DNA of 64,000 nt, taken from the NCBI GenBank assembly GCA_963749595.1, contig CAVVNJ010000002.1:32606-96605 (forward strand), in the 5' to 3' direction. Made by a program: the position numbers and the translations under genes. Of the stretch, positions 5,283 through 32,151 are shown piece after piece. Each line of letters starts with the position of its first letter. The first letter of the stretch is position 1. Under the pieces are notes generated by a model. That model was not told the DNA's origin and made no database searches. It was given only the letters and a program-made list of their open reading frames with translations. This DNA comes from Candidatus Woesebacteria bacterium. GTDB taxonomy: Bacteria > Patescibacteriota > Microgenomatia > UBA1400 > UBA1396.

Positions 5283-5326
5283 GGCGTTTACCCTTTCGCT
5301 ATTACTAAAAAGATTAACCTCTACTG

Positions 5327-5399
5327 AGCGGAAAACGGGACTCGGACCCGCGACCTTCTCCTTGGCAAGGAGACGCTCTACCAACTGAGCTATTTCCGC
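5327..5399 (-). tRNA. tRNA-Gly(GCC)
   Basis: Reverse complement is GCGGAAATAGCTCAGTTGGTAGAGCGTCTCCTTGCCAAGGAGAAGGTCGCGGGTCCGAGTCCCGTTTTCCGCT. It folds as a cloverleaf with anticodon loop TTGCCAA. The T-loop reads TCCGAGT, which is slightly atypical. Confidence 0.85.
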
Positions 5400-5436
5400 A
5401 ATCTTAGCCGATATTGTAGCATTTACCGGCTAACTT

Positions 5437-5940
5437 GTGGCAAGCCGAGGAGTCGAACCTCGATTTCATGTTCTTCAAAACTCCATCCTCGGCCTGCCTA
5501 TTACGCCACGAGTCTCCGAGGCCATCACTCTGGTTGAAGCCATTCTGGCCGCGGTTTCTGCTTCCCAAATCTCTTTGACTGTCGCGGTCGCACTGACTGA
5601 ATATATTCTCATTCAAGTCGTTACTCAACTTTCAGTTAGTGAGCAACTTGCCCTTTCAGAGTCTCTTGGATTAGATATTCAAATTTACCCCACCGGTCAA
5701 GACTCCATTTCTCTTACAGACCAAGTTGCTATTTCCATGCCCGGGTCCCTGTCACCCGCAAACTCTGATTTGGTCGCGCTGACTGAAAGTACTTCTGTTC
5801 TGGCGTACGCTACGAACTTAGACGTCTCAACAAGTGACAATATTTCGCTCTCTGATAACGTCGCTCTCTCGGTTCGAGGTGTTGTTGATTCAGCTTCAAC
5901 TATTATCCAAATCATTATGCTCGATATAGACCCAAGTTGA
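5437..5940 (+). CDS. Repeat-containing hypothetical protein (S/T/L/D-rich, phage structural-like)
   Basis: 167-aa ORF with recurring short motifs (ISLTDQVAIS, ISLSDNVALS, LALSESLGL, VALTESTSV). The listed start overlaps the tRNA-like element, so the true start is probably downstream. Confidence 0.3.
   Translation: MASRGVEPRFHVLQNSILGLPITPRVSEAITLVEAILAAVSASQISLTVAVALTEYILIQVVTQLSVSEQLALSESLGLDIQIYPTGQDSISLTDQVAISMPGSLSPANSDLVALTESTSVLAYATNLDVSTSDNISLSDNVALSVRGVVDSASTIIQIIMLDIDPS
5438..5498 (-). other. tRNA-like acceptor/T-arm minihelix (pseudo-tRNA or tRNA 3' remnant), not a canonical tRNA
   Basis: Minus-strand RNA is GGCAGGC-(29 nt)-CGAGG TTCGACT CCTCG-GCTTGCC-A. It has a 7-bp acceptor-like stem (one G-T pair) and a canonical T-arm. 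No D-arm or convincing anticodon arm is present. It lies 38 nt upstream of tRNA-Gly on the same strand. Confidence 0.35.
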
Positions 5941-5974
5941 CATTTTAAGTGTTAGTGAGATAGACATAATAATT

Positions 5975-6142
5975 ATGACAAACTCAAAACGCTATTGTTT
6001 TTATTTAACCGCAAAAGATATTCACATTCTAAAAACAGTTGCTGACCAAAAAACCACCAGTAAATCGCAATTAGTAAGAGAAGCCATTTCATTCACATTG
6101 CTGAATTTGTGGTTACCTACCAAGAAAGGGGAAGATTATGAC
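5975..6142 (+). CDS. Ribbon-helix-helix (CopG/Arc-like) DNA-binding protein, 55 aa
   Basis: Below the ORF-track size cutoff; found by reading. Translation is MTNSKRYCFYLTAKDIHILKTVADQKTTSKSQLVREAISFTLLNLWLPTKKGEDYD. The layout (beta strand RYCFYL, helix, helix SKSQLVREAI) is typical of RHH proteins. Its stop overlaps the next ATG. Confidence 0.5.
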
Positions 6143-6359
6143 TAAAAAAGAACACGAGCGACTACTTAACTTGCTCGAGATTACTCTCGGAGCAACCAAA
6201 TCCCTCCACAATAACTATTTGCGAACACTTATGGGAATAAGTTCTTCTTCGTCTTTAGCAGAGGAAGCCCGCCAACAAATGAGTCAGCAGAGCTTTACCC
6301 TGGTGAAGTCGCTATATGAAACAACGAAAGTTTTAACCGGAAATGTCAAGCATAGCTAA
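6138..6359 (+). CDS. Hypothetical protein (73 aa)
   Basis: Start overlaps the RHH gene stop (ATGACTAA). No domain recognised. Confidence 0.4.
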   Translation: MTKKEHERLLNLLEITLGATKSLHNNYLRTLMGISSSSSLAEEARQQMSQQSFTLVKSLYETTKVLTGNVKHS

Positions 6360-6621
6360 TCTGGAACTGGTTTTCGCGGTTGGCCTGCAAAAGTATGGCC
6401 AAGACGAATTGATTAGAATGATTCACTCAACTCTTAGTGGCATTCTTTACGATGGCCTGGCTTGGGATGATGGTTTTTTAGACTTAGTAACAGAAACCAT
6501 AAATAAGCGCAGATTCCAACCGAAAAAGGGCCTTATCACCCTCAAATCCCGGGCGGTTGTTGTGAAACTGCAATCGCCGCCCGGGAAACAACACACCAAG
6601 AAAGGAACGGTCGTTGTATGA
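6343..6621 (+). CDS. Hypothetical protein (92 aa)
   Basis: Overlaps the previous ORF by 17 nt on the same strand. No domain recognised. Confidence 0.4.
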   Translation: MSSIANLELVFAVGLQKYGQDELIRMIHSTLSGILYDGLAWDDGFLDLVTETINKRRFQPKKGLITLKSRAVVVKLQSPPGKQHTKKGTVVV

Positions 6622-6772
6622 CTAACATTTATATCAGGCTAATCAGCCTTCTGCCAAGAATAAATAAAGAGGCAGTAGAAGACATTGAGGAGACTGCCGC
6701 CTGGCTGGCCGTTCATGTCTCGGAAAACATAAAAAAGAATAGCCAGACCATTGCCGGAAGCAATAGAAAGTA
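6617..6772 (+). CDS. Hypothetical protein (51 aa)
   Basis: Not in the ORF track. The ATG at 6617 overlaps the previous stop (ATGA). Translation is MTNIYIRLISLLPRINKEAVEDIEETAAWLAVHVSENIKKNSQTIAGSNRK. Confidence 0.3.
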
Positions 6773-6858
6773 AAAAAATTACCGCCGTGGCTAATGTCTG
6801 CTAGGACACCACGGCGGGAAATAAAACAGCTTTATCACTCACGAAAGGAGTAATAGTT

Positions 6859-7644
6859 ATGAAAAAGTATAAGCGACAACCGTTAAAAAAGCAAAGTATC
6901 CGTTTTGCCGACGAGTCGAAGCGCTCGGGGTTTGTGAATGCCCCAAATTCACTTATTAAAAGTCCATACCTAAGCATTGGGGCCAAGATGGTCTACCTGT
7001 TGCTGCATAGTTATGCGTGGGACGGTGATAAATGTTATCCCGGTCACAATAAAATCGCCGCGGAACTGGGTTTTAAGTCTCCAAAAACGGTTAGAAAATA
7101 CCTAAACGAATTAAGAAACTACATGCTCATTGATTGGCAAGGAAAGAGCGAGCTCAATACTAACCTTTATGAGATTAAAGAAATCCCGGCTATTTTATTA
7201 TCTGACAGCAAACAATCACAAAAACTCATTGCTGAACGCATCGTAAGACTTAACGAAAAACATGAAAAACCACTCGGTTTATGGTCAAAAGGTGGGGTAA
7301 AAAAGGTACCCGAGGGTGGGGTAAAAAAGGTACCCGAAAGCAACACTCAGGAAAATAACACACAGGGGGTGTTTTTGGATTCTTCTTTGGACCACGAAGC
7401 CTCAAAGTCTACTGAAGCCCCCCCATTCGTTCGTGTTGGCCCTAAGCGCAGCGCCTCCGGCAAAGCCGGGACACAAAAGGCGCGAAAACAAACCGCGTAT
7501 ATTCCGTTGACTGAGCTGGAGGTTTACGAGTTGGCCAAGAAGTACACCATTCACCCGGAAGACGTGAAAGAGACATGCGCCGTGACCACCTTGGCTAGCT
7601 TGCCGCTGAGAGTATTTTATCACAAGACGCTCGGCTGGAGATGA
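6859..7644 (+). CDS. Winged-helix/HTH protein, replication-initiator-like (phage/plasmid type)
   Basis: 261-aa ORF preceded by the RBS AAAGGAG. YPGHNKIAAELGFKSPKTVRKYLNELRNYMLIDW resembles HTH replication or DnaD-like N-domains. It contains a GGVKKVPE duplication, and its 3' end overlaps the convergent gene by 25 nt. Confidence 0.5.
   Translation: MKKYKRQPLKKQSIRFADESKRSGFVNAPNSLIKSPYLSIGAKMVYLLLHSYAWDGDKCYPGHNKIAAELGFKSPKTVRKYLNELRNYMLIDWQGKSELNTNLYEIKEIPAILLSDSKQSQKLIAERIVRLNEKHEKPLGLWSKGGVKKVPEGGVKKVPESNTQENNTQGVFLDSSLDHEASKSTEAPPFVRVGPKRSASGKAGTQKARKQTAYIPLTELEVYELAKKYTIHPEDVKETCAVTTLASLPLRVFYHKTLGWR
7291..7338 (+). repeat. 24-nt tandem duplication inside the HTH gene
   Basis: ggtggggtaaaaaaggtacccgag followed by ggtggggtaaaaaaggtacccgaa (23/24 identical). 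It encodes GGVKKVPE twice. Confidence 0.9.
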
Positions 7645-10145
7645 TAATACGGAGGACGATTGCGGTAACGCTTGATCGCCAAAGCGATGATCTCTTCCAA
7701 AAAATCACCATAGTCCTGACCGGCAATCTCCGCCACGCTGGGAACACAGTCGCCAATACCAATCGACGGATTGGGATTCATTTCCAAAACGTAGGGATTG
7801 CCATCCGAGTCAACCCGCACTTCAACCCGGGCGTAATCATGGCAGTCAAGAATGTTATAGGTATCCAGACCGATTTCACTGATCAAAGCCGCCAGCTTGG
7901 ACGGGATTTTTGGCGGACGCTCAACTTTAATACTTTTCTTATAGACCGAATCTTTATAGCCAGGTTCACCATAACGCTTGGCCTCGAACGGAAAAATATG
8001 CCAGTAGCCCTTGGGCAACTTGTCAAAACGAGAGCGCGACAACGGCAGCACCCGCACATCGTCCGGCTCACTGCCCAGAATCGAAACGTCGTACTCGTCG
8101 CCTTCAATATATTCCTCAACTAGCGCCGGACGCTGCAATTTCTCAATCACGAACTTAATCTGTCGGCGCAGTTGCTTTTTATTGGTCACCACCGAATCAT
8201 TGGTTACGCCGATCGAGTTGTCCGTGTTGGCCGGCTTGACGATCAGTGGGTACTGCAACTCGTCGTCAATTGAGTCGTCAATCGTATAGGCGTAATCCCA
8301 CTTTGGCGTTGGAATATTATGATAATCCAGTAATTTCTTCACCCGAATTTTGTCAATACAGAGGGCCAGAGTCGTGGGATTGGAACCGGTGTAGGGAATC
8401 TGCAAGATATCAAGCAACGCCGCCGAATGGGACTCCAGTAGACTGGAGTTATTGATCCGTTCCGCCACGTTAAAAACCAAGTCGACCTGACTTTTTTGCA
8501 GCTCATTGAACGCTTGCGAAATATTATTAAAATCAAAAAGCGTAACGCGGTAACCGCGCTCGGCCAAAGTCCGCTGAATCTCATGACCAACCTGGGTTAA
8601 TTCCGCCTCCACGCCGCCGATTCCATCAAATTCGTTACTGGCGATTCCGATATGCAATTGGCGCTGTTTTTTGATTGGCGTATGACGCAGTTTGGCCAAT
8701 CTGGCCTGACCAGGAAATTGTTGTTTGCGTAGGGTTGCGGCCGCAAAAGGGCTACTCCGAGAAGTTTGACCTACCGAGGAACCGGGTTCAAACGGCACGA
8801 CCTCAAACTCGACCGCGTCATAGACCCGATCTAAATTATCGCGAGCATCATTAGCATTTTCGCCCTTGGCCGTGACCCAACCCAAAAAATCATAACCCTC
8901 AGGCGGGGCATAAACCGGATCACCAACTTGTTTAAAGAAATGTAACTCACCTTGGGCTGGGATGTTTTTTTTCTCCGGCAAATCAAGATTCACTAGTATG
9001 CCCGATTCCTCCGGCAAAAAATATTTTCCGGCCAGGCAGGCATATGGTTCTTCTGGTTTTTCCAGTTTAGGAACATAACGTCCCAAGGCAATGTTGACAG
9101 CCTGATCTATTAAATCCACGTGCCAGGCGGATTTCACAAATGAGTGGACCTCATCGCCGCCCATACGCAAGTTAACTTCAATCGGGACTGGTCCTTTTTT
9201 GGTCATCTTGGCCTCAAAATGAATAACGCCGTTGATAACCCCTAACTTTTCTAGCGTCACCTCAGCTAGATCCACTAAATCCTGTTGATCTTGTTCCGGC
9301 AGAATGGAGGGTATTTGCTGGCCGGTTTCCACAAAAAAAGGTTCATTGGTCTGGTAATTGTCACTCATCGACCAAAATTTGACCTTGCCATTTTGGATTA
9401 CCAAATCAATGTCCACTTCGTCACCATCGATATATTCCTCACAAAAAATTCCCAAGCCATCACCGAGGGCCGACTCGACCTGCACCGAAACGCTCTTGCG
9501 CAAATAATGGACGACGTCTTCCAAACCAGCCAGGTCGTCTACCTTAACCACATAGGCGCTAGAGGAACCGTACGTCGGCTTAACAACCAGAGGAAATTTA
9601 AGTCCTTTGATCGCGATTTTTGGCTCGACTGAGTTGAGAAAGGTGTGCTTAGGGTATGGCAAACCATTGGCCGCGCAGAATTGACGAAACTTGAATTTAT
9701 TGCGGGCCAGGCGCGACACCTCAAAGGGAATTCCGGTGGTCTTAAATTCATCGGTTAATTTGCTGGTCAGCAGAACGTCATCTTCCCAAAAAGTCAGGAT
9801 TCCATCCGGTCGGCGCTCCGGATGTTGGCGAACATAATCCTTGACCGCCCGCAGCGATTCGGAATGGTTGCCGGTATTGGCCATAATCCAGTCATCAACG
9901 TAGAGATCGGCCCAGTTTTTTTCCGCATTCAAAACGACCAAAAATAAATTTAGTTTGGCCAGACGCTGCAAAATAAACCGTTTTTTTTGGCTACCGGTGT
10001 TGACTAAAAGTAGGATTGGTTTATGGGCCAGCTGTTGAGAAACAGCGGCCGGACTAGGTCCAGGTTCTTCAGAATCTTTGATCATAAAGGCGGTATATTT
10101 TACCCGCGCAATAGTAGATCTTACTCCCGTCAGGCTAGAATGCAA
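7620..10145 (-). CDS. Two-module ATP-grasp ligase (N-terminal L-amino-acid-ligase/carnosine-synthase-like module + C-terminal D-Ala-D-Ala-ligase-like module)
   Basis: 841-aa ORF. Module 1 has FPLVVKPTYGSSSAYVVKV...EEYIDGDEVDIDLV...IEVNLRMGGDEV. Module 2 has YPLIVKPANTDNSIGV...VEEYIEGDEYDVSILG...YVLEMNPNPSIG. Each module carries ATP-grasp K, E and N hallmarks. Confidence 0.8.
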   Translation of the reverse strand: MHSSLTGVRSTIARVKYTAFMIKDSEEPGPSPAAVSQQLAHKPILLLVNTGSQKKRFILQRLAKLNLFLVVLNAEKNWADLYVDDWIMANTGNHSESLRAVKDYVRQHPERRPDGILTFWEDDVLLTSKLTDEFKTTGIPFEVSRLARNKFKFRQFCAANGLPYPKHTFLNSVEPKIAIKGLKFPLVVKPTYGSSSAYVVKVDDLAGLEDVVHYLRKSVSVQVESALGDGLGIFCEEYIDGDEVDIDLVIQNGKVKFWSMSDNYQTNEPFFVETGQQIPSILPEQDQQDLVDLAEVTLEKLGVINGVIHFEAKMTKKGPVPIEVNLRMGGDEVHSFVKSAWHVDLIDQAVNIALGRYVPKLEKPEEPYACLAGKYFLPEESGILVNLDLPEKKNIPAQGELHFFKQVGDPVYAPPEGYDFLGWVTAKGENANDARDNLDRVYDAVEFEVVPFEPGSSVGQTSRSSPFAAATLRKQQFPGQARLAKLRHTPIKKQRQLHIGIASNEFDGIGGVEAELTQVGHEIQRTLAERGYRVTLFDFNNISQAFNELQKSQVDLVFNVAERINNSSLLESHSAALLDILQIPYTGSNPTTLALCIDKIRVKKLLDYHNIPTPKWDYAYTIDDSIDDELQYPLIVKPANTDNSIGVTNDSVVTNKKQLRRQIKFVIEKLQRPALVEEYIEGDEYDVSILGSEPDDVRVLPLSRSRFDKLPKGYWHIFPFEAKRYGEPGYKDSVYKKSIKVERPPKIPSKLAALISEIGLDTYNILDCHDYARVEVRVDSDGNPYVLEMNPNPSIGIGDCVPSVAEIAGQDYGDFLEEIIALAIKRYRNRPPYYHLQPSVL

Positions 10146-10148
10146 GGA

Positions 10149-10784
10149 TCAGTGCTGAATCAGACGTCTTATTTTATTGACCAGACTGGGAAAAGCTTTA
10201 CTGTCACCAAGAAGATCGGTTTTTTCCACATCGATCGCGATCAGCGGTGTTTTGTCCCAGCGGGCAAACCAGTGCTCATTAAGGGCACAAATCTTTTCGA
10301 TCCAAGCTAGCGGCGTATCGGCGTCACTTTTCGGTCCGGTTCCTGATTCAATCCGACTTAGCCGACGGACACCATGCAAAAACTTTGGATCGGCGTGCAG
10401 ATAGATCACTACATCCGGCAGGGGAAAATGCTGGCTGGCCACCTCAACCAGGTCCGCGAAAACCTGTTGGTCAATTTCATTAAGCTTGGTAGCGCCGAAA
10501 ATCAGAGTGCTGAAATAAAAAGTATCCAAAACCACCCCGGTACCGGCACGATTCAGTTCTTTAGCCTGATTTAAGGCCGCCAAACGCTGGGTGAGAAACC
10601 AAAGCTGGGAGCGAAAGTAATCACGGGGTTTGTGATCTCGGAATGGATCTTGCCACCAGGGTTCGTCGATTGAAGTGAATCCCAATTGCTCTTTAAAAAG
10701 AGAACAGAGTAGAGACTTGCCAGCATAGTGCGGACCAACAATGGCAATTGTTAAAGGCTTAGTAAACTCAAATTTTCTAGCCAT
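10149..10784 (-). CDS. Deoxynucleoside kinase family protein (divergent)
   Basis: 211 aa with P-loop IAIVGPHYAGKS, LDTFYFS (ERS-like region) and PDVVIYLHADPKFLHGVRR (lid region). Confidence 0.65.
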   Translation of the reverse strand: MARKFEFTKPLTIAIVGPHYAGKSLLCSLFKEQLGFTSIDEPWWQDPFRDHKPRDYFRSQLWFLTQRLAALNQAKELNRAGTGVVLDTFYFSTLIFGATKLNEIDQQVFADLVEVASQHFPLPDVVIYLHADPKFLHGVRRLSRIESGTGPKSDADTPLAWIEKICALNEHWFARWDKTPLIAIDVEKTDLLGDSKAFPSLVNKIRRLIQH

Positions 10785-11640
10785 CGACTAAAACCTTTCG
10801 CTGCAGATCTGACCAAAAAAGATCGTAGTCGGCAGTCACGCTCACTTGGGTCGACGAACCATGGTCGGTTTCAATGAATTCGCCAATCGAGGACAACTCA
10901 ATATATTTTGCCTCAAAATCCACTGTTGGTAAGAAAAGGGTACTAAACGTTAAGGGGTCGTGCATCCGAGAATCGGGAAACATGGTATCAAAAAAACGAT
11001 CAAAATTCTCAATGATGAGACGGTCAAAGAAATCCGAACGATTTTGAAAATGACGGTATAAATCGTGCTGCCGCGTTACGGAAAGCTGAGGTACAAAAGT
11101 GAAGTCACTGAGCACCCAACGCTTTGGGCTCAATTCACCAAAAACCTGTCTGGCCGCGGATAAATCCAGCCTGACATTGTGTTCAGCCACTCCCGGTTTG
11201 CGAAAATGGATGGCGCCACCCATAATTATAGTTTCCATCATGGGCCAAATGTTCGGATAAGCCAACCCCAACTCTGCCCGGTTTGAAAGCGCGCCAATCG
11301 ATAGGTATTTTCCACCTTCCTGGGAGACTTTTTTTAAAATACGTTTCAACTCCGGCGCGGTGACAGCCGGTAGATCAGCCGGTTCAACCAAATCCTCAAG
11401 CAAAAATAGCTTGCTATTGCCCAGATCGCGTCCAGAAAAGACCGGAATGTCACGATCAATTGACTTCAGCCAACGTCGGAGCACTAAGGCCCGATGATTG
11501 GTCTGGAATTCATCGTTGGTTAAAAGGGCTTTAATTTCAATTTCCGGCGATTTGAGGGCATAAACCAGCGCGATTACATCATCAGGATCACCACCAAAAT
11601 CGGTATCAATGATGACGGGAAGCGGCCGGCCGGTATCCAT
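10777..11640 (-). CDS. Nucleoside hydrolase (inosine/uridine-preferring NH family-like)
   Basis: 287 aa. The N-terminal IIDTDFGGDPDDVIAL matches the DxDxxxDD Ca2+/ribose-binding signature of the IU-NH family. Confidence 0.75.
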   Translation of the reverse strand: MDTGRPLPVIIDTDFGGDPDDVIALVYALKSPEIEIKALLTNDEFQTNHRALVLRRWLKSIDRDIPVFSGRDLGNSKLFLLEDLVEPADLPAVTAPELKRILKKVSQEGGKYLSIGALSNRAELGLAYPNIWPMMETIIMGGAIHFRKPGVAEHNVRLDLSAARQVFGELSPKRWVLSDFTFVPQLSVTRQHDLYRHFQNRSDFFDRLIIENFDRFFDTMFPDSRMHDPLTFSTLFLPTVDFEAKYIELSSIGEFIETDHGSSTQVSVTADYDLFWSDLQRKVLVDG

Positions 11641-11664
11641 AACTGGTCCTCTGATTGTAGCAAT

Positions 11665-13635
11665 TTACCGGTGCGGCACAACTTGCCACCCGATAGCTTT
11701 CGTCCGGCCGGCCGCACGAATATCGACCCAACCATCGCCAATAAAAATCAGTTGCCGAACCGGAACACCCAATTTTTCAGCCAAGCTATTCATCGTTTTG
11801 GTGTCAGGTTTTTGCCGACCCAGTGCGGACGACACTAAGATATTCTTTTCGTCCAACCGGCCCGGACCGACAAAGCCAAAATGACGCAGTAAAGCAATCA
11901 TTTCCTCGCGTGGCAGTCGAGAGTTGGAAAAAACACCGACCGCTGACGAACCAAACAGCTGGACCGCAGTTTGCACGGCCTCAATCATTCCCGGCAAAAC
12001 TTGGTGCGTGGCCATCTCATAGACTACCTCATCGAACAGCATTTCCTTGGCCCGCTGTCCGTCCTGGCCAACCCCCAATGATTTCAGTATTTCGGACCAT
12101 AACTCATGATCACTAAACTCGGCTAGTTCACCGTTCTTTTCCTTGGCCGACAAAACCAGCTTTTCTCTGACCTTAAGGTAGGTTGATCGAAGACGAGCCT
12201 CGCTAATGCCTGGTTGCCAGGTCTTCAGCCGCTCCAACCAAACTTTGAACAATACCTCTTTGCGCCGTTTGGAGTCAAAGTTGGGCGCGCCAATTAAGGT
12301 GCCAAAAACATCAAAACCCACTCCCATCGCTCGTCCGCTATCTTTGGCCTCCGCCAAGCGTTGGGCGATTTCAAAACCGTCTTGGGTCCGGCGACTGGCA
12401 TTGAGGCTATCCCTAGTGCGAATCCGGGGTTCCAGAGTTTCTTCCTGACGATGTTTGCCCAAGAATTTTCTGGTCTGAGGCAGAATCGCCAGCCCATACG
12501 AGGCCGCCATTTCCTCCGGTGAAGCCACGTCATTAACCGCCCACCGCGTGCCAACGTAATGGAGCCGCTGGTCAACTTGCTGGATTTTAGAATTGGCTTG
12601 CAAAAACTTCCGCAAATTTTTGGGTGAGGCTCCGGTCGCCAAGGTATCATCGATGATCACTGCCCGCGAATCCCGGTCAAATTTAGCAATGCGCTCTCGC
12701 TGCTGATCATACAAAGAAACCACCACCCCACGTTCCCGCATGGAACGGGAAGCGCCGCCGATCGGAGTTACTTTGGGTAGCAAATACACGTAATCGCGCG
12801 GAAAAAGCTCGGCCGCGAAACCAAACTCTTGCCGATGTCTTTCAATGAACTGCACGGCTTCGGAAGTATCAATACCACCCAGCAGAGGGGCGATCGCCAC
12901 ATCATAGCCAGCTAATTTTCCGTGCGCTACCCACCAGTAGGCAGTGCCTAAAGCCTGAGCGGCTGGACATTCATGATCAGTGCGGAATAAATCTAAATCA
13001 GCGTACTTGACCCAAGCTTGATGATATGGCTCGACTAATTGTTTCATTCGCCGAAGATCGGATCGCACTAAATTTACCAAATGATCGGTGGACTGTCCTA
13101 AAAGAGTCAAGAAGTAACCCTCATACAACTTTCGCAAAATCAATTCGGCTTTGGCCACCTCTGGAAAAGTTTTCTTCTCCAGCAGCGATAGTGCGGTCAG
13201 AGCATAAAACTGCGCCGTTCCCAAGCCGATCAAATTATCCCAAAGCGCCAGCTTGGCCTTCCACTCCTCTTTCTTTTTATCCGAGAGCAGTGTCAGCAAT
13301 TCGGGTATCTCCCCAAATTCCGTCGCCAAATTAAGAAAGCTTTCAAAGCGTTTGGCGCCACCCACGCCACCGGAATAATTACCGTCTAATAAGATCAGAT
13401 CGGTGCTGCGTAGGGCAATGCGATCAGTTTTGTACTGCGCCGAATTTCCCGCTAAAAAAAACTGGCGAGCCTTCATTGGTAATCGGCTAAGCTCTCCTGG
13501 GGTAAACAAGACCGCGCCGTTGGTTTCTAAACGAAGCCACTTGGCTTGCGGAACGCGCTCTTGGTAGAGCGTTTGCACCTCGCTCGCCCGAAGACGCGCC
13601 TGTTTTTCTATTTCCTTGTATGGCAAAAGAGACAT
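11665..13635 (-). CDS. Multidomain protein: unknown N-terminal region + phosphoribosyltransferase-like core + C-terminal HAD-like hydrolase
   Basis: 656 aa. AVIIDDTLATGAS is a PRPP-binding loop. GVGFDVFGTLI (HAD motif I variant, as in DxYGT-type members) and IFIGDGWVDIRAA (motif IV-like) mark the HAD part. The first ~300 aa are unrecognised. Confidence 0.6.
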   Translation of the reverse strand: MSLLPYKEIEKQARLRASEVQTLYQERVPQAKWLRLETNGAVLFTPGELSRLPMKARQFFLAGNSAQYKTDRIALRSTDLILLDGNYSGGVGGAKRFESFLNLATEFGEIPELLTLLSDKKKEEWKAKLALWDNLIGLGTAQFYALTALSLLEKKTFPEVAKAELILRKLYEGYFLTLLGQSTDHLVNLVRSDLRRMKQLVEPYHQAWVKYADLDLFRTDHECPAAQALGTAYWWVAHGKLAGYDVAIAPLLGGIDTSEAVQFIERHRQEFGFAAELFPRDYVYLLPKVTPIGGASRSMRERGVVVSLYDQQRERIAKFDRDSRAVIIDDTLATGASPKNLRKFLQANSKIQQVDQRLHYVGTRWAVNDVASPEEMAASYGLAILPQTRKFLGKHRQEETLEPRIRTRDSLNASRRTQDGFEIAQRLAEAKDSGRAMGVGFDVFGTLIGAPNFDSKRRKEVLFKVWLERLKTWQPGISEARLRSTYLKVREKLVLSAKEKNGELAEFSDHELWSEILKSLGVGQDGQRAKEMLFDEVVYEMATHQVLPGMIEAVQTAVQLFGSSAVGVFSNSRLPREEMIALLRHFGFVGPGRLDEKNILVSSALGRQKPDTKTMNSLAEKLGVPVRQLIFIGDGWVDIRAAGRTKAIGWQVVPHR

Positions 13636-13650
13636 ATTGTTATTGGTTAT

Positions 13651-13660
13651 ACACTAGTGT
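13651..13660. promoter_or_regulatory. 10-bp perfect palindrome ACACTAGTGT in a divergent promoter region
   Basis: Lies 16 nt upstream of the 13635 start codon, in the gap to the divergent 13747 gene. It shares the CACTAGTG core with sites at 28694-28701 and 57265-57274. Confidence 0.4.
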
Positions 13661-13746
13661 TTTTCGAGCAGTAAAGTAGTAATTGTCAGCTTGCAATATA
13701 GATGCTTGTTATCTTTGATATTAATAGGATATACTAGAGGACGTTT

Positions 13747-14604
13747 ATGGGTAAATACGATCGCGAGTTAGAATCGCGAAAATACGATCAACCCAGGGTT
13801 CTTCCCGAGCATCTTCCCGGGCACGATAAGGAATTGACCGCTCTCCAGATACTGACGGGAGAAGCGGACAATATTCTCATCGTTGATCTGGATGATACCC
13901 TCTATGACACCTTTTCGGCACTGACGGAATATATCCCCATGTTCATTCGCCAAGAAGTTGATCCGGAATTCTCTATAAGTTCGTTGGAGTTGCGCGCGGC
14001 AGTTATCGGCGCCCCAGGTGGTCGCTTCGATAATACTGAGGTCCTAAAAAATACTATGGACGCAGCCAATTTGTCGATCGACCAACTAATAAACCACGCG
14101 AATTCTGATCCCCAGCTGCTCAAATTAGCTAAACTTTTTCCGGAAGCCCGAGCCTTAATCCAGGCTTTTGCCACTCGCGGCATACCACTGGTCGGCGCCC
14201 TCACCGCCCGACCGGAAGCGGTAATTCCGGAGACCTACGCCATCTTGCATCAGGATGGCTTTCGTGCCCGGATACCGGGACATGGTTTCGGTCATTACCC
14301 GGATCATAGTCGGCCGATTACCGTCCTTCGTCCGGACGGTGTCACGACCCAGAATCCCGCCGGACCAAAAATTGTATCTTTTGAACGATTGTTGTCACTG
14401 TTACCGCCCCAAACCAGGATCCACTATCCGGAAGATACGGTAAAAACCGCCATCGAAATTCATGCTCGATTCAAGGATCGCGTTACCGTGATCGTGCCGC
14501 TGATCCCGCGAAATCTCAAGGATCGTCAAAAATTGGAGGAACTGGGAATTGTTTGTGGCACCCACGCGGAATTAGTGGCCCGGGTCCAAAATAATCATCG
14601 CTAA
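13747..14604 (+). CDS. HAD-superfamily hydrolase (possible nucleotidase)
   Basis: 285 aa with HAD motif I ILIVDLDDTLYDT. Context is a nucleotide salvage cluster. Substrate unknown. Confidence 0.6.
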   Translation: MGKYDRELESRKYDQPRVLPEHLPGHDKELTALQILTGEADNILIVDLDDTLYDTFSALTEYIPMFIRQEVDPEFSISSLELRAAVIGAPGGRFDNTEVLKNTMDAANLSIDQLINHANSDPQLLKLAKLFPEARALIQAFATRGIPLVGALTARPEAVIPETYAILHQDGFRARIPGHGFGHYPDHSRPITVLRPDGVTTQNPAGPKIVSFERLLSLLPPQTRIHYPEDTVKTAIEIHARFKDRVTVIVPLIPRNLKDRQKLEELGIVCGTHAELVARVQNNHR

Positions 14605-14692: not shown

Positions 14693-15760
14693 ATGAGCAA
14701 GGAGCTAATTACACTGGGTCCAGCCCTGGTCGACGTGGTCGCCGACCTGACTCGTCGTCCCCAGGATTATTACGCCATTCTCGATGGCCTCCACGCCGGC
14801 CCCGGTGATTGGGTACCGATTGCCGACGAATACCAGTTGAATCAAATTCTCGGTATTTTGGGTCAACAACTTGCATTTTCCTTGAGTCAAGATTTTTTTG
14901 CTCTCGCTCAGACTCCCCAAATTAGTATTGAGGCTGGTTCCACCGGTTTGGGCATGGTTTCGGCCTTTACTCCTAATCAGCGGCGTCAAACTTCCGTTGT
15001 CACCAGCATCGGCTCGCCTGATGGGCAGCAACCAGACCAAATTTCAACTTTTTTTTCTTCCGCCGTAAAGGACTTAGGCGCCCGTCATGACACCGTTCCG
15101 GTGAGGGGAATTAACCCGATTGGGCTGGTCCTGGCCACTGCCGACTCAACAGATAAGGTCCTCGCTAATTTTGCCGGAGTAGCGCACGAACTGCCCTGGC
15201 TTCCAGAATCGGTCCAGTCGCCGCGCGTGCTACACATCGACGCCTATGAACTGAGAGAGGGGACACTTGCCCAAAGGGCGAACGAACTGATCCGTTCTGG
15301 GACCGCACCAATCGCCTTGGGACTGGGCAACCCACAAATTATTCACGGAAAATTGAAGGCCAAGATTCAGGAGTACGTTAACGATGGCCTGATCACTTAT
15401 CTGATGGGTAATAGTGAAGAATATCGCTTGGCTTTTGATTTGGGCCCAACTGACTTAGAGCCCGCCAAGCTGCCCCAGCTCGGCTTGCAAACCAAAGTCC
15501 CTCATATTTTGATCACCCTCGGCGCCGAAGGAATGGCCGCCTTTGACCGCGGTCAATTTGCGCACGTTGAATCAAAAAAACCAGCCCGAATAGTGAATAC
15601 CTCAGGGGCAGGGGATACAGCGGCGGGAGTTTTCCTATCCGGAATCCTAAAAAATAAACCGCTGGAGCAAATTTTGCGGGAAGCGACTTTTTATGCGGCG
15701 CAAGTTTTGGGCGTACCAGGAAATCGATTACCAGAGGGAAGAGAAACGGAGTGGCGATGA
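14693..15760 (+). CDS. PfkB-family carbohydrate/nucleoside kinase (ribokinase/adenosine-kinase-like)
   Basis: 355 aa with the C-terminal PfkB signature VNTSGAGDTAAGVFLSG. Confidence 0.8.
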   Translation: MSKELITLGPALVDVVADLTRRPQDYYAILDGLHAGPGDWVPIADEYQLNQILGILGQQLAFSLSQDFFALAQTPQISIEAGSTGLGMVSAFTPNQRRQTSVVTSIGSPDGQQPDQISTFFSSAVKDLGARHDTVPVRGINPIGLVLATADSTDKVLANFAGVAHELPWLPESVQSPRVLHIDAYELREGTLAQRANELIRSGTAPIALGLGNPQIIHGKLKAKIQEYVNDGLITYLMGNSEEYRLAFDLGPTDLEPAKLPQLGLQTKVPHILITLGAEGMAAFDRGQFAHVESKKPARIVNTSGAGDTAAGVFLSGILKNKPLEQILREATFYAAQVLGVPGNRLPEGRETEWR

Positions 15761-17547
15761 AAAAAACAGAAAAGTTAAGGGTTGACGCCAGCTGGTATGA
15801 TCCACACTCAACCGAACCATTGATGCGAAAACGGGGAATTGTCAAAGACAGAGAAACAGTTTCTGATGCGCTAAGCCGCGTGGTTCATGCTCTCTGTAAT
15901 GCTGATACGGAACTGGAAGGCAATGCGGATGAGCAATTCCTTAATGACGTTGCTTATTTCACCGAAAAAGGTATTTTTGTTTATGGCACACCCATTTTAA
16001 CTAATGCCGGGAGGGGTGAAATCACCACTGCCGCATGTACCGTTATTCCACTTCCCGTTCGTCAGGGCTTGTTAGAGATAGATCAGTTTCGAGAACGTTC
16101 TTTAGAGTCGCTAGATGCGGCCATTGGAACTGGGTACGACCTCTCAACTTTGGCAAATCCAACTGTCGAGCTCCATCGGATGAATGAAACGATCAATGAA
16201 ATAAATTTAGCCTTACTGAAAGCCAAAAAACGCCCAGTGGCTTGCATGGCCACCCTCCGAGCCGATCATCCGGATATCTTAAATTTTATCTCTGCAAAAA
16301 ACGATGCTGATTTTACTAATTGGCGATTCAACATTTCTGTCTGGGCTAGCGAGAAATTATTCGAGCAAGCTAAAAGAAATTCACTTTGGAATCTGCATGA
16401 CAATGAAGGTCGCGCTGTCGGTCAAATTCCGGCGCAGGAACTATTACAACGAATTGCGACTAACGCCCATTACTGCGGCGAGCCAGGGCTACTCTTCAAA
16501 GATCGCTACAGTCGCGACAACGCAACGCCACAGTGGGAATACGAGAGCACTGCGCCTTGTGCCGAGGTGGCCATGGCCGCCGGAGAGGTTTGTCAATTTA
16601 GTTACATTAATTTGGCTGAACTTTGGTCCGATTCGGGTCAAGGACCGAGTTTTGATTTTGACCAATTCCAAAAGAGCGTGAGAACCATGACCCGCCTTCT
16701 TGACGCCTCGGTGCAGATCACGATTGATTTTGACCCGCTCCACTCCGCAATAATTGGCGCCAAACGACGGATTGGTGTTGGAGTAACTGGTTTTGCAGGT
16801 TTGCTGCTCCGGCTTGGAATCCCATACGCATCACCTGAAGCGGAAAAACTAGCGTACCAAATCTCCGAAACACTTGCCTTTGCCTCAAAAACAGAATCTG
16901 TTGAGCTGGCAACTCGACGTGGAGTGTTTCCGGCATTTTTGGATAGCCGTTATACGAACAAAAGCTGGCTTCGCCGGCATCGAAAAAAATCGACAGGGAT
17001 CATTTCCAATCGAGACTGGGAACTGCTCTATCAGTCTATTCTGAAATCAGGTATTCGAAATGCGTCCACGACTGCTTTTCCGCCAACCGGAACCAGCAGT
17101 CAAATTGCCAGCACCTCAACCAGTTTTGAACCATATTTTTCCCTCGTCAGCTACAAATATGGCTATCCACAGTCGCCGGACACAGCAGTACCGGTTATTA
17201 CCAGAGATGTTTTGTCGGCCTTACAAGTGGTAGCGAAAAATCCCCAGGAGCTGGCTGAATTAATCCGAACGGTCTATGACCCGACTAACCAACATCAGAT
17301 CTCAAATGTTGATCAGTATCCAACTCTCGCCACCGCGCGCCAGATTTCATTGGATTGGCATCTCCGCATCCAAGCCGCTTTCCAAGCCTTTGCTGACGAA
17401 GCCGGGTCAAAAACGATTAATCTCCCCAATCATGCCCAACCTGAGGATGTTATGGCAGTGCTCTTCCGCGCCTATGAACTTGGCCTCAAGGGAGTAACCG
17501 TTTTCCGCGACAACTGTCTCAACGAACGGACCTGCGCCAAGCGTTAA
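15751..17547 (+). CDS. nrdJ: Ribonucleotide reductase, class II (adenosylcobalamin-dependent)-like
   Basis: 598 aa. LTNAGRGEITTAACTVIPL, APCAEVAM and FPPTGTSSQIASTS resemble RNR large-subunit active-site regions. No R2 subunit or NrdD/G partner is nearby. The start overlaps the PfkB gene stop. Confidence 0.8.
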   Translation: MAMKKTEKLRVDASWYDPHSTEPLMRKRGIVKDRETVSDALSRVVHALCNADTELEGNADEQFLNDVAYFTEKGIFVYGTPILTNAGRGEITTAACTVIPLPVRQGLLEIDQFRERSLESLDAAIGTGYDLSTLANPTVELHRMNETINEINLALLKAKKRPVACMATLRADHPDILNFISAKNDADFTNWRFNISVWASEKLFEQAKRNSLWNLHDNEGRAVGQIPAQELLQRIATNAHYCGEPGLLFKDRYSRDNATPQWEYESTAPCAEVAMAAGEVCQFSYINLAELWSDSGQGPSFDFDQFQKSVRTMTRLLDASVQITIDFDPLHSAIIGAKRRIGVGVTGFAGLLLRLGIPYASPEAEKLAYQISETLAFASKTESVELATRRGVFPAFLDSRYTNKSWLRRHRKKSTGIISNRDWELLYQSILKSGIRNASTTAFPPTGTSSQIASTSTSFEPYFSLVSYKYGYPQSPDTAVPVITRDVLSALQVVAKNPQELAELIRTVYDPTNQHQISNVDQYPTLATARQISLDWHLRIQAAFQAFADEAGSKTINLPNHAQPEDVMAVLFRAYELGLKGVTVFRDNCLNERTCAKR

Positions 17548-18369
17548 TCACCGACGCTGATTTTTTAACGACCGTTCGAAAGCTCGAGCCATCGCCGGAG
17601 CATCATCCACCGGAAAAGCTTTCAGCAATTGGTCGTCCAACTTCTCTCTGGTTTCAAAAAACATCCGGAGCAGGAGATTGAGCAACGTGGCGTCCAGATA
17701 AGTTTCAGCATCTTGAGGGTTTTCCGACTGCATCACCGGAGCGCTGATATTCAACTCCTCAGCCTTGTTGCGCCAAATTTGGGTGAAGCCGTCGACATGA
17801 AGCAATCCGCCGGCCAGGTCGTCGGCAGCGGCGATTTTGACGTGATCAATGCCGGAGTTAACCACCGCGCCCACCGTGCACATCGGGCAGGGTTCAAGAG
17901 TGGTAAATAATTCCCGTTTTGGCTGTCCCGGTTTAGCGGCCCGGGTGATTTCCGGATTTCCGTCTTCGTCCCTACCAAAAACATGAATCTTATGCCCGGC
18001 AATTAATTGCAGGATCGCCACTTTATCACCGTCTTTTCCAGCCAGTAGAAACTCTCGCAGGGCAGCCGTAGCGTTCATTTCGGCATGGCCATGGGGGTTA
18101 CTTTCGGAAAAAATCGTGTTGTGACCCAGGAAAATCATCTCCCGACCACCTTGGCGCACCACAACTGAGGCGGCAATCCCATAGTTGCCGCGTTGCCGCG
18201 CTTCAATGCCGTGCTCGAGAAGAATCAAAAAATATTCCGCCGCGGAATGCGTACCGCGCAGTTTTTCACGGTTGGCGGCAATGTATACCTCGGCCTCGCG
18301 AATCAACTGCTTAGTTTCCCGGGAAAATTCCTGGTGGGGGGAATGTTTTTCTAACTTGCCAGATCTCAT
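17548..18369 (-). CDS. CMP/dCMP-type zinc deaminase family protein (nucleoside/nucleobase deaminase)
   Basis: 273 aa with HAEMNA and PCPMCTVGAV (the H-A-E ... PCxxC zinc site). Substrate not assignable. Confidence 0.8.
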   Translation of the reverse strand: MRSGKLEKHSPHQEFSRETKQLIREAEVYIAANREKLRGTHSAAEYFLILLEHGIEARQRGNYGIAASVVVRQGGREMIFLGHNTIFSESNPHGHAEMNATAALREFLLAGKDGDKVAILQLIAGHKIHVFGRDEDGNPEITRAAKPGQPKRELFTTLEPCPMCTVGAVVNSGIDHVKIAAADDLAGGLLHVDGFTQIWRNKAEELNISAPVMQSENPQDAETYLDATLLNLLLRMFFETREKLDDQLLKAFPVDDAPAMARAFERSLKNQRR

Positions 18370-18459
18370 GATGCCTTTCTTCGTGGCCGAACGAGTTTGA
18401 CTCTGTTAGAGAAGGATTATATCACCTATAATTATCAAAAAGCCATAGACGGAGGCATT

Positions 18460-19251
18460 ATGTTTACCGAACAACAAGCAGCCCAAGTCCTGACTAAACG
18501 GGTCAAAAAGTTTCCTTCTTTTCTGGCCGTTCTCGGCAGCGGCTGGAACAAAGTTCTCTCCTCCGCCAAGATTGAGACTGAAATCCCTTATTCCGAGCTG
18601 TTCGGCGTGGCGGCCACGGTTCCGGGGCACGATGGCAAACTGGTCATCGCCAAAATTAAAGGGCAAAGAGTAGCCGTGATGTCCGGACGCTTTCACACCT
18701 ATGAGGGTTTTTCCGCTCGCGAGGCTACTCTGCCGATTCGGGTTTTTGCCAAAGCCGGAGCTAAACAGCTCATTCTCACCGCTGCCTGTGGCGCACTCAA
18801 TGAAAAATATCGCGTCGGGGATTTCGTCCTCCTTAACGACGTTATCACTCTTTTCCTGGCCTTGGATAATCCGTTAATTGGCCCGCAGTTCCTTGATGTC
18901 TCCGAAGTCTTTGATCCGGAAATGCGTAAAACTGCCCGGGAGGTAATGGTCAAAAATGACCTGCCGCTGAAGGAAGGTTCCTATTGCTATTACCACGGAC
19001 CAAACTACGAGACCCCCGCCGACAAAATGGCCCTTCGTTTTTTGGGCGCCGATGTGGTCGGCATGAGCACGGTCCCGGAAGTATTAATGGCCCGCTGGTT
19101 GAAAATGGAAGTGATGGGTTTGGCGTTTGTGACCAATCTGGCTTTTGTCAAACATGATCACAAGGACGTCATTGCCGCGGCCGAAAAAGCCAGCGCCCAG
19201 ATGACAACCGTGCTTGAGGGATTTTTCAATCAAACAGCGAAAAAAGCTTAA
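18460..19251 (+). CDS. Purine nucleoside phosphorylase (PNP/MTAP family, PunA-type)
   Basis: ORF track start is 18397. I prefer the ATG at 18460, which follows the RBS GGAGG. Motifs are GRFHTYEG, YYHGPNYETPAD and GADVVGMSTVPEV. Confidence 0.85.
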   Translation: MFTEQQAAQVLTKRVKKFPSFLAVLGSGWNKVLSSAKIETEIPYSELFGVAATVPGHDGKLVIAKIKGQRVAVMSGRFHTYEGFSAREATLPIRVFAKAGAKQLILTAACGALNEKYRVGDFVLLNDVITLFLALDNPLIGPQFLDVSEVFDPEMRKTAREVMVKNDLPLKEGSYCYYHGPNYETPADKMALRFLGADVVGMSTVPEVLMARWLKMEVMGLAFVTNLAFVKHDHKDVIAAAEKASAQMTTVLEGFFNQTAKKA

Positions 19252-20868: not shown

Positions 20869-21450
20869 ATGAATATCCTAATTATCTCGGACATTCACGA
20901 GAATTTTCACAATCTTGAAATAATTTTGACCTATGCCAAAAATGAAGGAATTTCTCGGGGATTTGCTCTTGGCGATTTGATTAACCCTGGCATTATGCAC
21001 CAACTTGGCCGCTCAAAAATTAACTTCGATATAGTTCTGGGCAACAATGACGGCGACAAATTTATGCTCGCTGCTAGCGCTGGTAAATATAAGAATCTTC
21101 ATCTCGAAGATCTGTATGAAGAATTGGAAATAGATGAGAAAAAAATCTTTATAACCCATTACGATAAAATCGGCGACTTGGCCGCGAAATCGGGTGATTA
21201 TCAAGCAACTTTCTGTGGTCACAATCATGTTTTTAACTCGGTAGTACTAGCAAACGGCTGCCTGCTAGCTAACCCGGGAGAGGTATCTGGCCACATGTTT
21301 GGCAAGCCAACTTTCGGTGTGTGGGACAGCATAACGAATAGGTTCAAAGTGATTCAAATTGCTGGAGCATGGGTGGATGTCAAAAGATTTAAGCGTGATA
21401 ACCAGCCTGTTCTCAATGAAGTTTCCTTTACGGAAATTGCTTCCGAATAA
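20869..21450 (+). CDS. Metallophosphoesterase (YfcE/MJ0936 family)
   Basis: 193 aa with MPE motifs SDIHEN, LGDL, GNNDGD and CGHNH. Confidence 0.8.
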   Translation: MNILIISDIHENFHNLEIILTYAKNEGISRGFALGDLINPGIMHQLGRSKINFDIVLGNNDGDKFMLAASAGKYKNLHLEDLYEELEIDEKKIFITHYDKIGDLAAKSGDYQATFCGHNHVFNSVVLANGCLLANPGEVSGHMFGKPTFGVWDSITNRFKVIQIAGAWVDVKRFKRDNQPVLNEVSFTEIASE

Positions 21451-32147: not shown

Positions 32148-32151
32148 AATT

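Follow-up and report, generated by a model that had tools for sequence, protein, structure and literature searches.

Layout of the four-gene locus

This study concerns a cluster of four genes in a 64-kb stretch of DNA, referred to here as the window, which is the part of the genome that the analysis covered. In the list of open reading frames (ORFs) of the window, four co-directional minus-strand ORFs fill positions 13635 to 7620. The first encodes a fusion of an N-terminal domain, a phosphoribosyltransferase (PRT)-like domain and a HAD domain, and it is followed by genes for a nucleoside hydrolase, a P-loop kinase of the deoxynucleoside kinase (dNK) family and a ligase with two ATP-grasp modules. 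The features of the locus are given below with the evidence on which each call is based (aa, amino acids; nt, nucleotides).

11665-13635, minus strand: gene 1, 656-aa N-domain/PRT/HAD fusion (ORF list, PF00702, family alignments, structure models, Foldseek, PDB profile search)
10777-11640, minus strand: gene 2, 287-aa nucleoside hydrolase of a distinct subfamily (Pfam IU_nuc_hydro, RihA alignment)
10149-10784, minus strand: gene 3, 211-aa P-loop kinase of the deoxynucleoside kinase family (Pfam dNK)
7620-10145, minus strand: gene 4, tandem ATP-grasp ligase (longest ORF 841 aa with a TTG start at 10145)
13636-13746: divergent intergenic region of 111 nt between gene 1 and the HAD-like/PfkB/NrdJ genes, with promoter-like hexamers on both strands

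The original prediction had described four minus-strand genes running from 13635 to 7620 with gaps of 24 nt or less, or overlaps, and these coordinates match the ORF list. Its domain calls (hydrolase, dNK, HAD and a pair of ATP-grasp modules resembling L-amino-acid ligase (LAL) and D-alanine-D-alanine ligase (Ddl), respectively) passed the Pfam cut-offs and agreed with the PDB matches, and the two motifs on which it had relied, VIIDDTLATGAS and DTDFGGDPDD, are both present in the translations. A gap of 24 nt lies between genes 1 and 2, and the next pair, genes 2 and 3, overlaps by 8 nt. The distance between genes 3 and 4 is 3 nt only if translation of gene 4 begins at the TTG at 10145. The public version of the gene 4 protein (P0001) has 821 aa and thus starts at the ATG at 10085, and alignments with homologues begin only at about residue 14 to 24 of this shorter version. 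For these two reasons, a gap of 63 nt and a product of 821 aa are more likely.

No terminator-like site was found between the four genes, and the overall number of such sites corresponds to the expectation from shuffled sequences (14 versus 11.1 ± 3.6). Given the tight spacing and the lack of a terminator-like site between them, the four genes are probably co-transcribed. Upstream of gene 1, promoter-like matches are present on the minus strand (13724 to 13695, TTAATA-18-TATATT) and on the plus strand (13706 to 13735), each of them a match to the consensus only. At gathering level, Rfam detected tRNAs only over the locus and no riboswitch or other RNA.

Gene 1 encodes a fusion of a PRT-like and a HAD domain

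The gene 1 product consists of three parts. Residues ~1-215 form a domain of long helices which had no match in any search, in line with the original prediction, which had put this N-domain at about 300 aa. Residues ~215-400 have a predicted type I PRT-like fold with a GG pair at 252-253 and an invariant W365, and the candidate loop for binding of phosphoribosyl pyrophosphate (PRPP), VIIDDTLATGAS, lies at residues 325-336. Residues ~430-656 constitute a HAD-IA domain with motif I D442-V-F-G-T followed by S570-N571, K609 and D638. The Pfam model PF00702 (HAD) matched residues 439-642 with 42.6 bits against a cut-off of 26.4.

No Pfam or NCBIfam PRT model matched the middle part of the fusion, and the sole hint at a PRT on the sequence level was a match to ShosT (E 0.0037) for the homologue P0122. 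The structure model of the full-length protein was mediocre with a predicted local distance difference test score (pLDDT) of 72.8 but contained a good HAD domain. For residues 1-422, modelling with 12 sequences gave a pLDDT of 80.9 and a predicted template modelling score (pTM) of 0.85. When this model was used in Foldseek, all of the 50 best PDB matches were type I PRTs (HGPRT, PyrR, APRT, OPRT) with probabilities of at least 0.99. A search of the viral library BFVD with the PRT model likewise returned viral PRT-domain proteins on top. The PRPP-loop core that had been proposed originally is thus supported, as a type I PRT domain, by the predicted fold.

Residues D215, R218, E222, G253, D256, D329 within the PRPP loop, and W365 are invariant in both subfamilies of the fusion. 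The acidic pair of the PRPP loop is kept in 11 of 11 aligned family members, and the loop has its textbook form in the window fusion and in P0122. HAD motifs I to IV (D442, S/T570-N571, K609 and D638) are also invariant in both subfamilies. When a profile of the fusion family was compared with the PDB, 7shg was the second-best sequence (E 2.1e-7) and was aligned over the whole HAD domain including the cap. The same entry had the lowest root-mean-square deviation (3.4 Å) among the HAD structure matches, and its motif I, F-D-I-F-D-T, compares with G-F-D-L-F-G-T in the fusion family. The HAD domain of the fusion is therefore closest to the phosphoribose-phosphatase (PRP) module of PRPP-dependent ribofuranosyltransferases, as represented by 7shg.

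Six matches to the fusion were obtained in a set of 5.8 billion clusters, with only five homologues, at 41-44% identity. In 1.84 billion representatives the matches numbered 15, and the family amounts to about 12 proteins there. Four of the 15, the distant relatives P0134-P0137 of about 720 aa, retain the three-part layout at an identity of ~20% over the full alignment and 23-27% over the matched stretch. A scan of metagenomes for fusion loci by the pattern of HAD motifs yielded mostly stand-alone HADs and only two more true members. Neither the curated models nor the literature linked the fusion to a characterised enzyme. We conclude that it represents a very rare, uncharacterised enzyme family.

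Genes 2 and 3 and their association with the fusion

The gene 2 product carries DTDFGGDPDD at its N-terminus and matched PF01156 (IU_nuc_hydro) with 76.1 bits (cut-off 34.2). Alignment to RihA (1yoe/3g5i) showed that the Asp cluster and the E-x-N and H-D-P motifs are kept. The protein remained below all NCBIfam equivalog cut-offs, for example with 42 bits versus 433 for RihA. In its subfamily the Asp cluster contains an insertion of two residues, (D/S)TDxxxDPDD, and is accompanied by a (M/L)HD(P/V)L motif. This DPDD subfamily is small (34 matches) and can occur without the fusion. The closest homologues of gene 2, as well as those of gene 4, stem from metagenome-assembled genomes (MAGs) of Patescibacteria. 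Gene 3 matched PF01712 (dNK) over its full length with 46.8 bits (cut-off 27).

In L130 (8195-10761) and L131 (142-2708), a DPDD hydrolase with 70% identity to a fusion-linked one (that of locus L091) is flanked by genes for an IS200-type Y1 transposase on one side and a Vut_1/YhhQ-type transporter on the other. The transporter neighbour, a single observation, hints at a 7-deazapurine or queuosine-type nucleoside as substrate of the hydrolase.

A hydrolase of the DPDD subfamily is encoded directly 3' of the fusion in five of eight distinct readable loci, i.e. in the window, L091, L087, L089 and L090, and often overlaps the upstream fusion gene. L091 belongs to the near fusion subfamily, while L087 (from a closed 1.27-Mb genome), L089 and L090 belong to the distant one. 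The divergence of the hydrolase runs parallel to that of the fusion, with identities of 50% (hydrolase) versus 45% (fusion) in the near clade and 27-30% versus ~20% in the far clade. In two genomes, those of the window and of L090, fusion and hydrolase are followed by a dNK; the order in L090 is fusion, hydrolase, a dNK 50% identical to gene 3, and a UMP-kinase-like gene. Since the same hydrolase subfamily follows the fusion in five of the eight loci and a dNK comes next in one beside the window, genes 1 to 3 are a rare but conserved module.

In the clade of P0123-P0128, where the fusion is without the hydrolase, a separate gene for a HAD protein of 237-239 aa is located 5' of the fusion, and an ATPase/winged-helix regulator is encoded 3' of it on the opposite strand. 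The closest homologue, P0122 (44% identical), stands alone among ORFans on a 3.0-Mb contig (L084 1-22046), with genes for H-NS-like, HTH, AAA, HNH and type VI secretion Tle1-like proteins in its surroundings, and this stretch looks like a mobile or variable island. A role in defence was also considered: PADLOC matched none of the proteins encoded by genes 1, 2 and 4 and gave marginal matches only for the dNK and P0122, and this reading was rejected.

The resemblance of the HAD domain to the PRP module of 7shg, with which it has the D-x-F motif in common, also bears on the acceptor of the putative PRT domain. Rather than a salvage enzyme, the fusion could be a PRPP-dependent ribosyltransferase acting on a glycan, a cofactor or another metabolite instead of a nucleobase, in the manner of the 7shg-type enzymes or of CobT/CobC, with the hydrolase trimming or recycling the riboside. 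The helical N-domain of 215 residues could then serve to bind the acceptor, and in L087, L089 and L091, which are three of the five loci with a linked hydrolase, there are no other nucleotide genes in the vicinity. We consider such an acceptor unlikely. The predicted PRT domain matches classical base-specific PRTs, the gPRT half of 7shg is unmatched by sequence, and none of the adjacent genes is of the polysaccharide, ABC-transporter or cofactor type. Moreover, two genomes have a dNK next in line, L090 also has a UMP-kinase-like gene, and the surroundings in the window are saturated with nucleotide enzymes.

Gene 4 encodes a tandem ATP-grasp ligase of a conserved family

Module limits are given here for the 841-aa version. 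The N-terminal module (residues ~40-470) is LAL-like, with ATP-grasp_4 and LAL_C2 matches on 148-449; PF18603 (LAL_C2) matched residues 375-449 with 43.5 bits against a cut-off of 29.4. Its best PDB match was the L-amino-acid ligase BL00235 (3vot, E 5.6e-27). The C-terminal module (residues ~495-841) is Ddl-like, with Dala_Dala_lig_C on 621-820 and the Ddl 3r23 as best PDB match (E 8e-24 to 3e-25). Several Pfam ATP-grasp families were above cut-off in both halves. In an alignment of 25 sequences, which has a mean column identity of 70%, K168, E215, E290, E302 and N304 of the N-module and K616, E656, E657, R752, E754, E767 and N769 of the C-module are invariant. Both modules look active, because the Lys, hinge and E-x-N residues are invariant in both.

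At E <= 1e-10, 727 homologues were obtained. Almost all of the best 120 of these are ~800 aa in length (775-837), contain both modules and are 56-61% identical to gene 4. Family members are 54-61% identical across Patescibacteria and Lysobacterales, and at least 194 loci are present in species-representative genomes. In a neighbour-joining tree, true Lysobacterales, with GC contents of 0.55-0.65 and including the cultured Elongatibacter sediminis, stand apart from a broad low-GC group of Patescibacteria. Many TPA_asm MAGs titled 'uncultured Gammaproteobacteria/Pseudomonadales/Saccharibacteria' (L010, L013, L023, L024, L026 and others) have loci with GC contents of 0.27-0.49; these labels are probably wrong because the loci are low in GC and the ligases nest among those of Patescibacteria in the tree.

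Gene 4 missed all curated Ddl models (best scores: NF002378, 190.9 bits versus 243; TIGR01205, 141.8 versus 245.65), and it fell far short of every equivalog model. Comparison of the C-module with the Ddl proteins of Y. pestis and B. anthracis showed that K215, R255, E270 and N272 have kept equivalents, whereas S150, Y216, S281 and L282 (DdlB numbering), which we take to be the D-Ala-binding residues, are replaced by N622, R703, D778 and C779, respectively. The Arg at the position of Y216 varies across the family. The N-domain of Ddl had no counterpart, as Dala_Dala_lig_N was not matched in Pfam and the alignment started only at the central domain. Judged by these residues and scores, gene 4 is not a canonical Ddl. 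Its N-module is not a known housekeeping ligase. A tblastn search of the window with both modules retrieved only gene 4 itself and no second Ddl.

The literature search did not yield a description of this family, the matches to 'two ATP-grasp domains' being concerned with CarB and pseudomurein. Analogies to carnosine synthase, GshF and the mycosporine enzymes MysC/MysD were considered and set aside, as neither neighbouring genes nor model matches supported them. Gene 4 thus belongs to a large, strongly conserved and uncharacterised family of tandem ATP-grasp proteins. A different, canonical tandem exists in a Paceibacterota MAG (L130 4219-7726), where a 790-aa Ddl-Ddl protein passes the curated Ddl cut-offs (322 versus 246 bits) and is followed by alanine racemase.

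Neighbours of the gene 4 family in other genomes

For a survey of gene neighbourhoods, ORFs were called and neighbours clustered in 82 other loci of the gene 4 family and in the window (83 in total), with flanks of ~8 kb. None of the 82 other loci contained a homologue of gene 1, 2 or 3 within these flanks, and no gene 4 homologue was present in the fusion-family loci outside the window. No single neighbour family occurred in more than 16 loci. The most frequent association was with a family of 458 aa (example: L062 6595-7971, plus 15 further copies), which adjoins the gene 4 homologue in 15 loci and lies within the flanks in 16. It is usually located upstream and usually overlaps. The 458-aa family had no Pfam match; 12 of its 16 members matched the NCBIfam MurL model, far below the cut-off of the model (best E 6e-10), and its motifs are a PP-loop-like S-F-G-K-D-S and C-x2-C-x2-C.

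Further recurrent neighbours were a third ATP-grasp protein (ATP-grasp_3, nine loci), a LysA-like pyridoxal-phosphate (PLP) decarboxylase (12 loci; 170 bits versus a cut-off of 298), which also resembles FslC-type conjugate decarboxylases, and a GNAT of the Acetyltransf_6 family (10 loci). In the Lysobacterales loci, recurrent genes code for a small GNAT and a deacylase of the AstE/AspA family. None of these partner genes (MurL-like, third ATP-grasp, decarboxylase, GNATs, AstE/AspA-like) was found in the window. Because of the MurL-like, third ATP-grasp, PLP decarboxylase and GNAT neighbours, which were seen in other genomes, we suggest that the gene 4 family may act on a short peptide that can gain a D-residue after ligation.

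A role in the cell wall was considered as an alternative. Gene 4 could be a fused, racemase-sparing substitute for or supplement to Ddl that makes a di- or tripeptide for the peptidoglycan stem or cross-bridge, and would then lie behind gene 3 by chance. That its C-module is nearest to Ddl in both the model and PDB searches would fit this idea, as would the recurrence of FemAB-like Acetyltransf_6 GNATs and LysA-like decarboxylases beside its homologues and the absence of another Ddl from the window. We nevertheless regard a cell-wall role of this kind as rather unlikely. The D-Ala-binding residues are replaced, the Ddl N-domain is unaligned and every Ddl cut-off was missed, and no mur, alr or dcw genes are among the families recurring beside gene 4 homologues. 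True Lysobacterales also carry the family and, as Gammaproteobacteria, would be expected to have ddlB, and the Paceibacterota MAG has its separate canonical Ddl-Ddl fusion beside alr.

Probable independence of the salvage module and the ligase

Taken together, it is fairly probable that the cluster consists of two evolutionarily independent co-directional units, namely a salvage module (genes 1-3) and an independent ligase (gene 4). As gene 4 and genes 1 to 3 did not co-occur in any other locus surveyed, the position of gene 4 behind the dNK gene is most likely due to operon packing. The first unit would serve the interconversion of bases, nucleosides and nucleotides in a salvage-dependent, Patescibacteria-like organism with a small genome. 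In this scheme the PRT domain would use PRPP and a base-like acceptor to form a ribosyl-5'-phosphate, and the HAD domain would remove the ribose-5'-phosphate group either from the PRT product or from incoming nucleotides. The hydrolase would release base and ribose from nucleosides, and the gene 3 kinase would re-phosphorylate (deoxy)nucleosides. Gene 4 would catalyze two successive amide ligations via acyl-phosphates, one by the LAL-like and one by the Ddl-like module, to form a short peptide or peptide-amine. Judged by the genes that recur beside its homologues in other genomes, the product would be a small peptide, possibly with a D-residue, rather than a nucleoside conjugate.

ATP-grasp ligases participate in peptidyl-nucleoside and other non-ribosomal amide pathways. 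The four genes could accordingly form a single pathway to an aminoacyl- or peptidyl-nucleoside or -nucleotide, in which gene 4 would acylate, twice, a nucleoside scaffold provided by the fusion and the hydrolase or kinase. The tight co-directional spacing without an intervening terminator-like site would be in keeping with such a pathway, and gene 4 is without its usual partner genes in the 64 kb. We consider this very improbable in view of the lack of co-occurrence in 82 other ATP-grasp loci and in all fusion-family loci outside the window. In addition, gene 4 is 54-61% identical to homologues in genomes that are devoid of the module, a degree of conservation that speaks for a substrate which has stayed the same and does not depend on the module, and the probable start at 10085 leaves 63 nt in front of it.

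Several observations weigh against two units with the functions proposed above. The four genes are probably co-transcribed, and a shared function can underlie co-transcription. For the PRT domain, the Foldseek E-values are individually weak (8e-4 to 1.3e-2), the target TM scores are 0.37-0.49, and T-M or T-L replaces the T-G of the PRPP loop in P0123-P0125, three of the six close homologues, as well as in P0127 and P0128, which makes five of seven members of the close clade. In HAD motif I, all members of the fusion family have D-x-F or D-x-Y and thus lack the general acid/base at Asp+2, so that phosphatase chemistry is inferred only from the resemblance to 7shg. The hydrolase is missing 3' of the fusion in three of the eight distinct loci (five contigs: the P0122 island and L086/L092/L129). 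Finally, the match of the 458-aa family to MurL is sub-threshold (31 bits versus a cut-off of 700) and concerns genomes other than that of the window.

With respect to the original prediction, the label 'salvage operon' holds for genes 1 to 3 and not for gene 4, which is independently distributed and has none of these salvage genes beside it in the 82 other loci. Likewise, the gene order in relatives is in part conserved for the fusion and the hydrolase, sometimes with the dNK, whereas the linkage to gene 4 does not recur. The suggestion that tight linkage indicates synthesis of an aminoacyl- or peptidyl-nucleoside conjugate found no backing in the 82 ATP-grasp loci or the fusion-family loci, and the comparative data favour the fallback that had been offered, simple operon packing. 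It had been correctly anticipated that neither the tandem ATP-grasp protein nor the PRT-HAD fusion is a characterised enzyme, as no curated model was passed and no paper was found. The outcome considered adverse from the start, an ordinary Ddl fused to a housekeeping ligase in a non-conserved gene order, came about only as far as the order around gene 4 is concerned; with 190.9 versus 243 bits the C-module is not an ordinary Ddl, and the N-module is not a housekeeping ligase.

Two new leads emerge, a ligase family linked with MurL-like genes and a permuted PRT-PRP design with a dedicated hydrolase. We tentatively propose, while holding it to be rather doubtful, that at least one of two statements applies. 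Either the gene 4 family together with the MurL-like epimerase, the third ATP-grasp protein and the PLP decarboxylase would constitute a racemase-independent route to a D-residue peptide or peptide-amine, possibly related to the cell envelope and widespread in Patescibacteria, or the fusion and the hydrolase would represent a new PRPP-dependent 'ribosylate then dephosphorylate' enzyme for a special base, e.g. of the 7-deazapurine/queuine type.

Patescibacteria depend on scavenging, and a large part of the genes they conserve is without a functional assignment. Among such families the tandem ATP-grasp protein is one of the more strongly conserved, with identities of ~60% between phylum-level groups and as far as Lysobacterales, and its MurL-like association leads to a testable hypothesis: ligate, epimerise, ligate again. 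The design of PRPP transfer followed by removal of the 5-phosphate, known from ribofuranose polysaccharides, may also exist in a permuted, cytoplasmic and nucleotide-linked form, and identification of the acceptor of the fusion would extend nucleoside salvage in reduced genomes by one step. For annotation, the lesson of the locus is that close spacing of genes in an operon argues only weakly for a shared function when the genome is compact. No specialist expectation is overturned, and two conserved uncharacterised families gain concrete hypotheses.

Surroundings of the locus in the window

Genes 1 to 3 are set in a nucleotide-metabolism neighbourhood of ~15 kb that reaches to about 24971 and forms their context outside the operon. 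The HAD-like gene, the PfkB kinase gene and nrdJ run divergently from gene 1. The genes of this neighbourhood are as follows.

13747-14604: HAD-like protein with canonical DLDDT
14693-15760: PfkB kinase
15751-17547: class II ribonucleotide reductase NrdJ
17548-18369: dCMP/cytidine deaminase-like protein
18397-19251: PNP_UDP_1 phosphorylase
19252-20778: GMP synthase
22714-23355: P-loop kinase-like protein (Pfam scores near or below cut-off)
24351-24971, minus strand: second dNK-family kinase (84 bits), ~14 kb from gene 3

Three ORFs of 427, 303 and 668 aa had no Pfam match (21428-22711, minus strand; 23361-24272, minus strand; 52724-54730, plus strand); the first two fall inside this neighbourhood. 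A second ATP-grasp system is encoded on the plus strand at 28901-33309 and comprises 7TM_transglut (312 aa), ATPgrasp_ST (428 aa, 182 bits) and MATCAP/DUF1704-like (342 aa) proteins, followed by a LytR_cpsA_psr protein. On the other side of the locus, the 3' end of a convergent HTH_36 gene (6859-7644) overlaps the stop codon of gene 4 by 25 nt. Beyond it are two ORFs without family match and tRNA-Gly(gcc) at 5326-5399, and the stretch 5326-7644 may be a small integrated element beside the tRNA gene.

Comparison with known systems

In ribofuranosyltransferases, a gPRT module uses PRPP as the donor of ribose-5-phosphate, and the 5-phosphate is then stripped off by the HAD (PRP) module (PMC11294581, PMC10299916); phosphatase activity has been reported for the PRP of the 7shg family (PMC11294581). 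The enzymes compared were 7shg from Thermobacillus composti, the Klebsiella prototype, Salmonella STM0726 and Hib Bcs3 CriT/CrpP. Like these, the fusion, which is known from sequence and models, pairs a putatively PRPP-using PRT-type domain with a HAD domain in one polypeptide, and its HAD has the D-x-F variant of motif I that is found in the PRP module of 7shg. The order of the parts is different, PRT before HAD in the fusion and PRP before gPRT in the known enzymes. Furthermore, the PRT half of the fusion is of HGPRT/PyrR type, with no match to the gPRT half of 7shg, the helical N-domain of ~215 residues is extra, and the genetic context consists of a nucleoside hydrolase, a dNK and nucleotide genes instead of glycan-assembly genes. 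By analogy, the fusion would thus unite both ribofuranosyltransferase chemistries in reversed order and with a classical-looking PRT half. With type I PRTs it has in common the predicted fold, a candidate PRPP loop of the form [VIL]3-D-D-x3-T-G-x-S/T that was assigned by eye, and an upstream G-G loop at the expected spacing. It differs from them in that its PRT part is only 11-16% identical and sits between two other domains.

Like RihA/YbeK and other IU-NH proteins, gene 2 keeps the Ca/ribose-binding Asp cluster along with E-x-N and H-D-P; unlike them, it has two additional residues in the Asp cluster and belongs to a small, fusion-linked subfamily. Each half of gene 4 possesses the full ATP-grasp catalytic set of LAL (BL00235/3vot, BacD) and Ddl, with LAL_C2 in the N-half, whereas the fusion of both in one chain of ~810 aa and the replaced Ddl substrate residues set it apart from either. 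In the MurD2/MurL system of Xanthomonas, an L-amino acid is ligated first, and an ATP-dependent unidirectional epimerase then acts on the C-terminus of the peptide (PMC8788868). The distant MurL homologue adjoining the tandem ATP-grasp gene in 15 loci is reminiscent of this arrangement. Unlike gene 4, MurD2 is a Mur ligase and not an ATP-grasp protein, and the window is devoid of a MurL-like gene. ATP-grasp ligases, PRT/HAD pairs and IU-type hydrolases are known kinds of proteins, and each piece of the locus described here is a variant of one of them.

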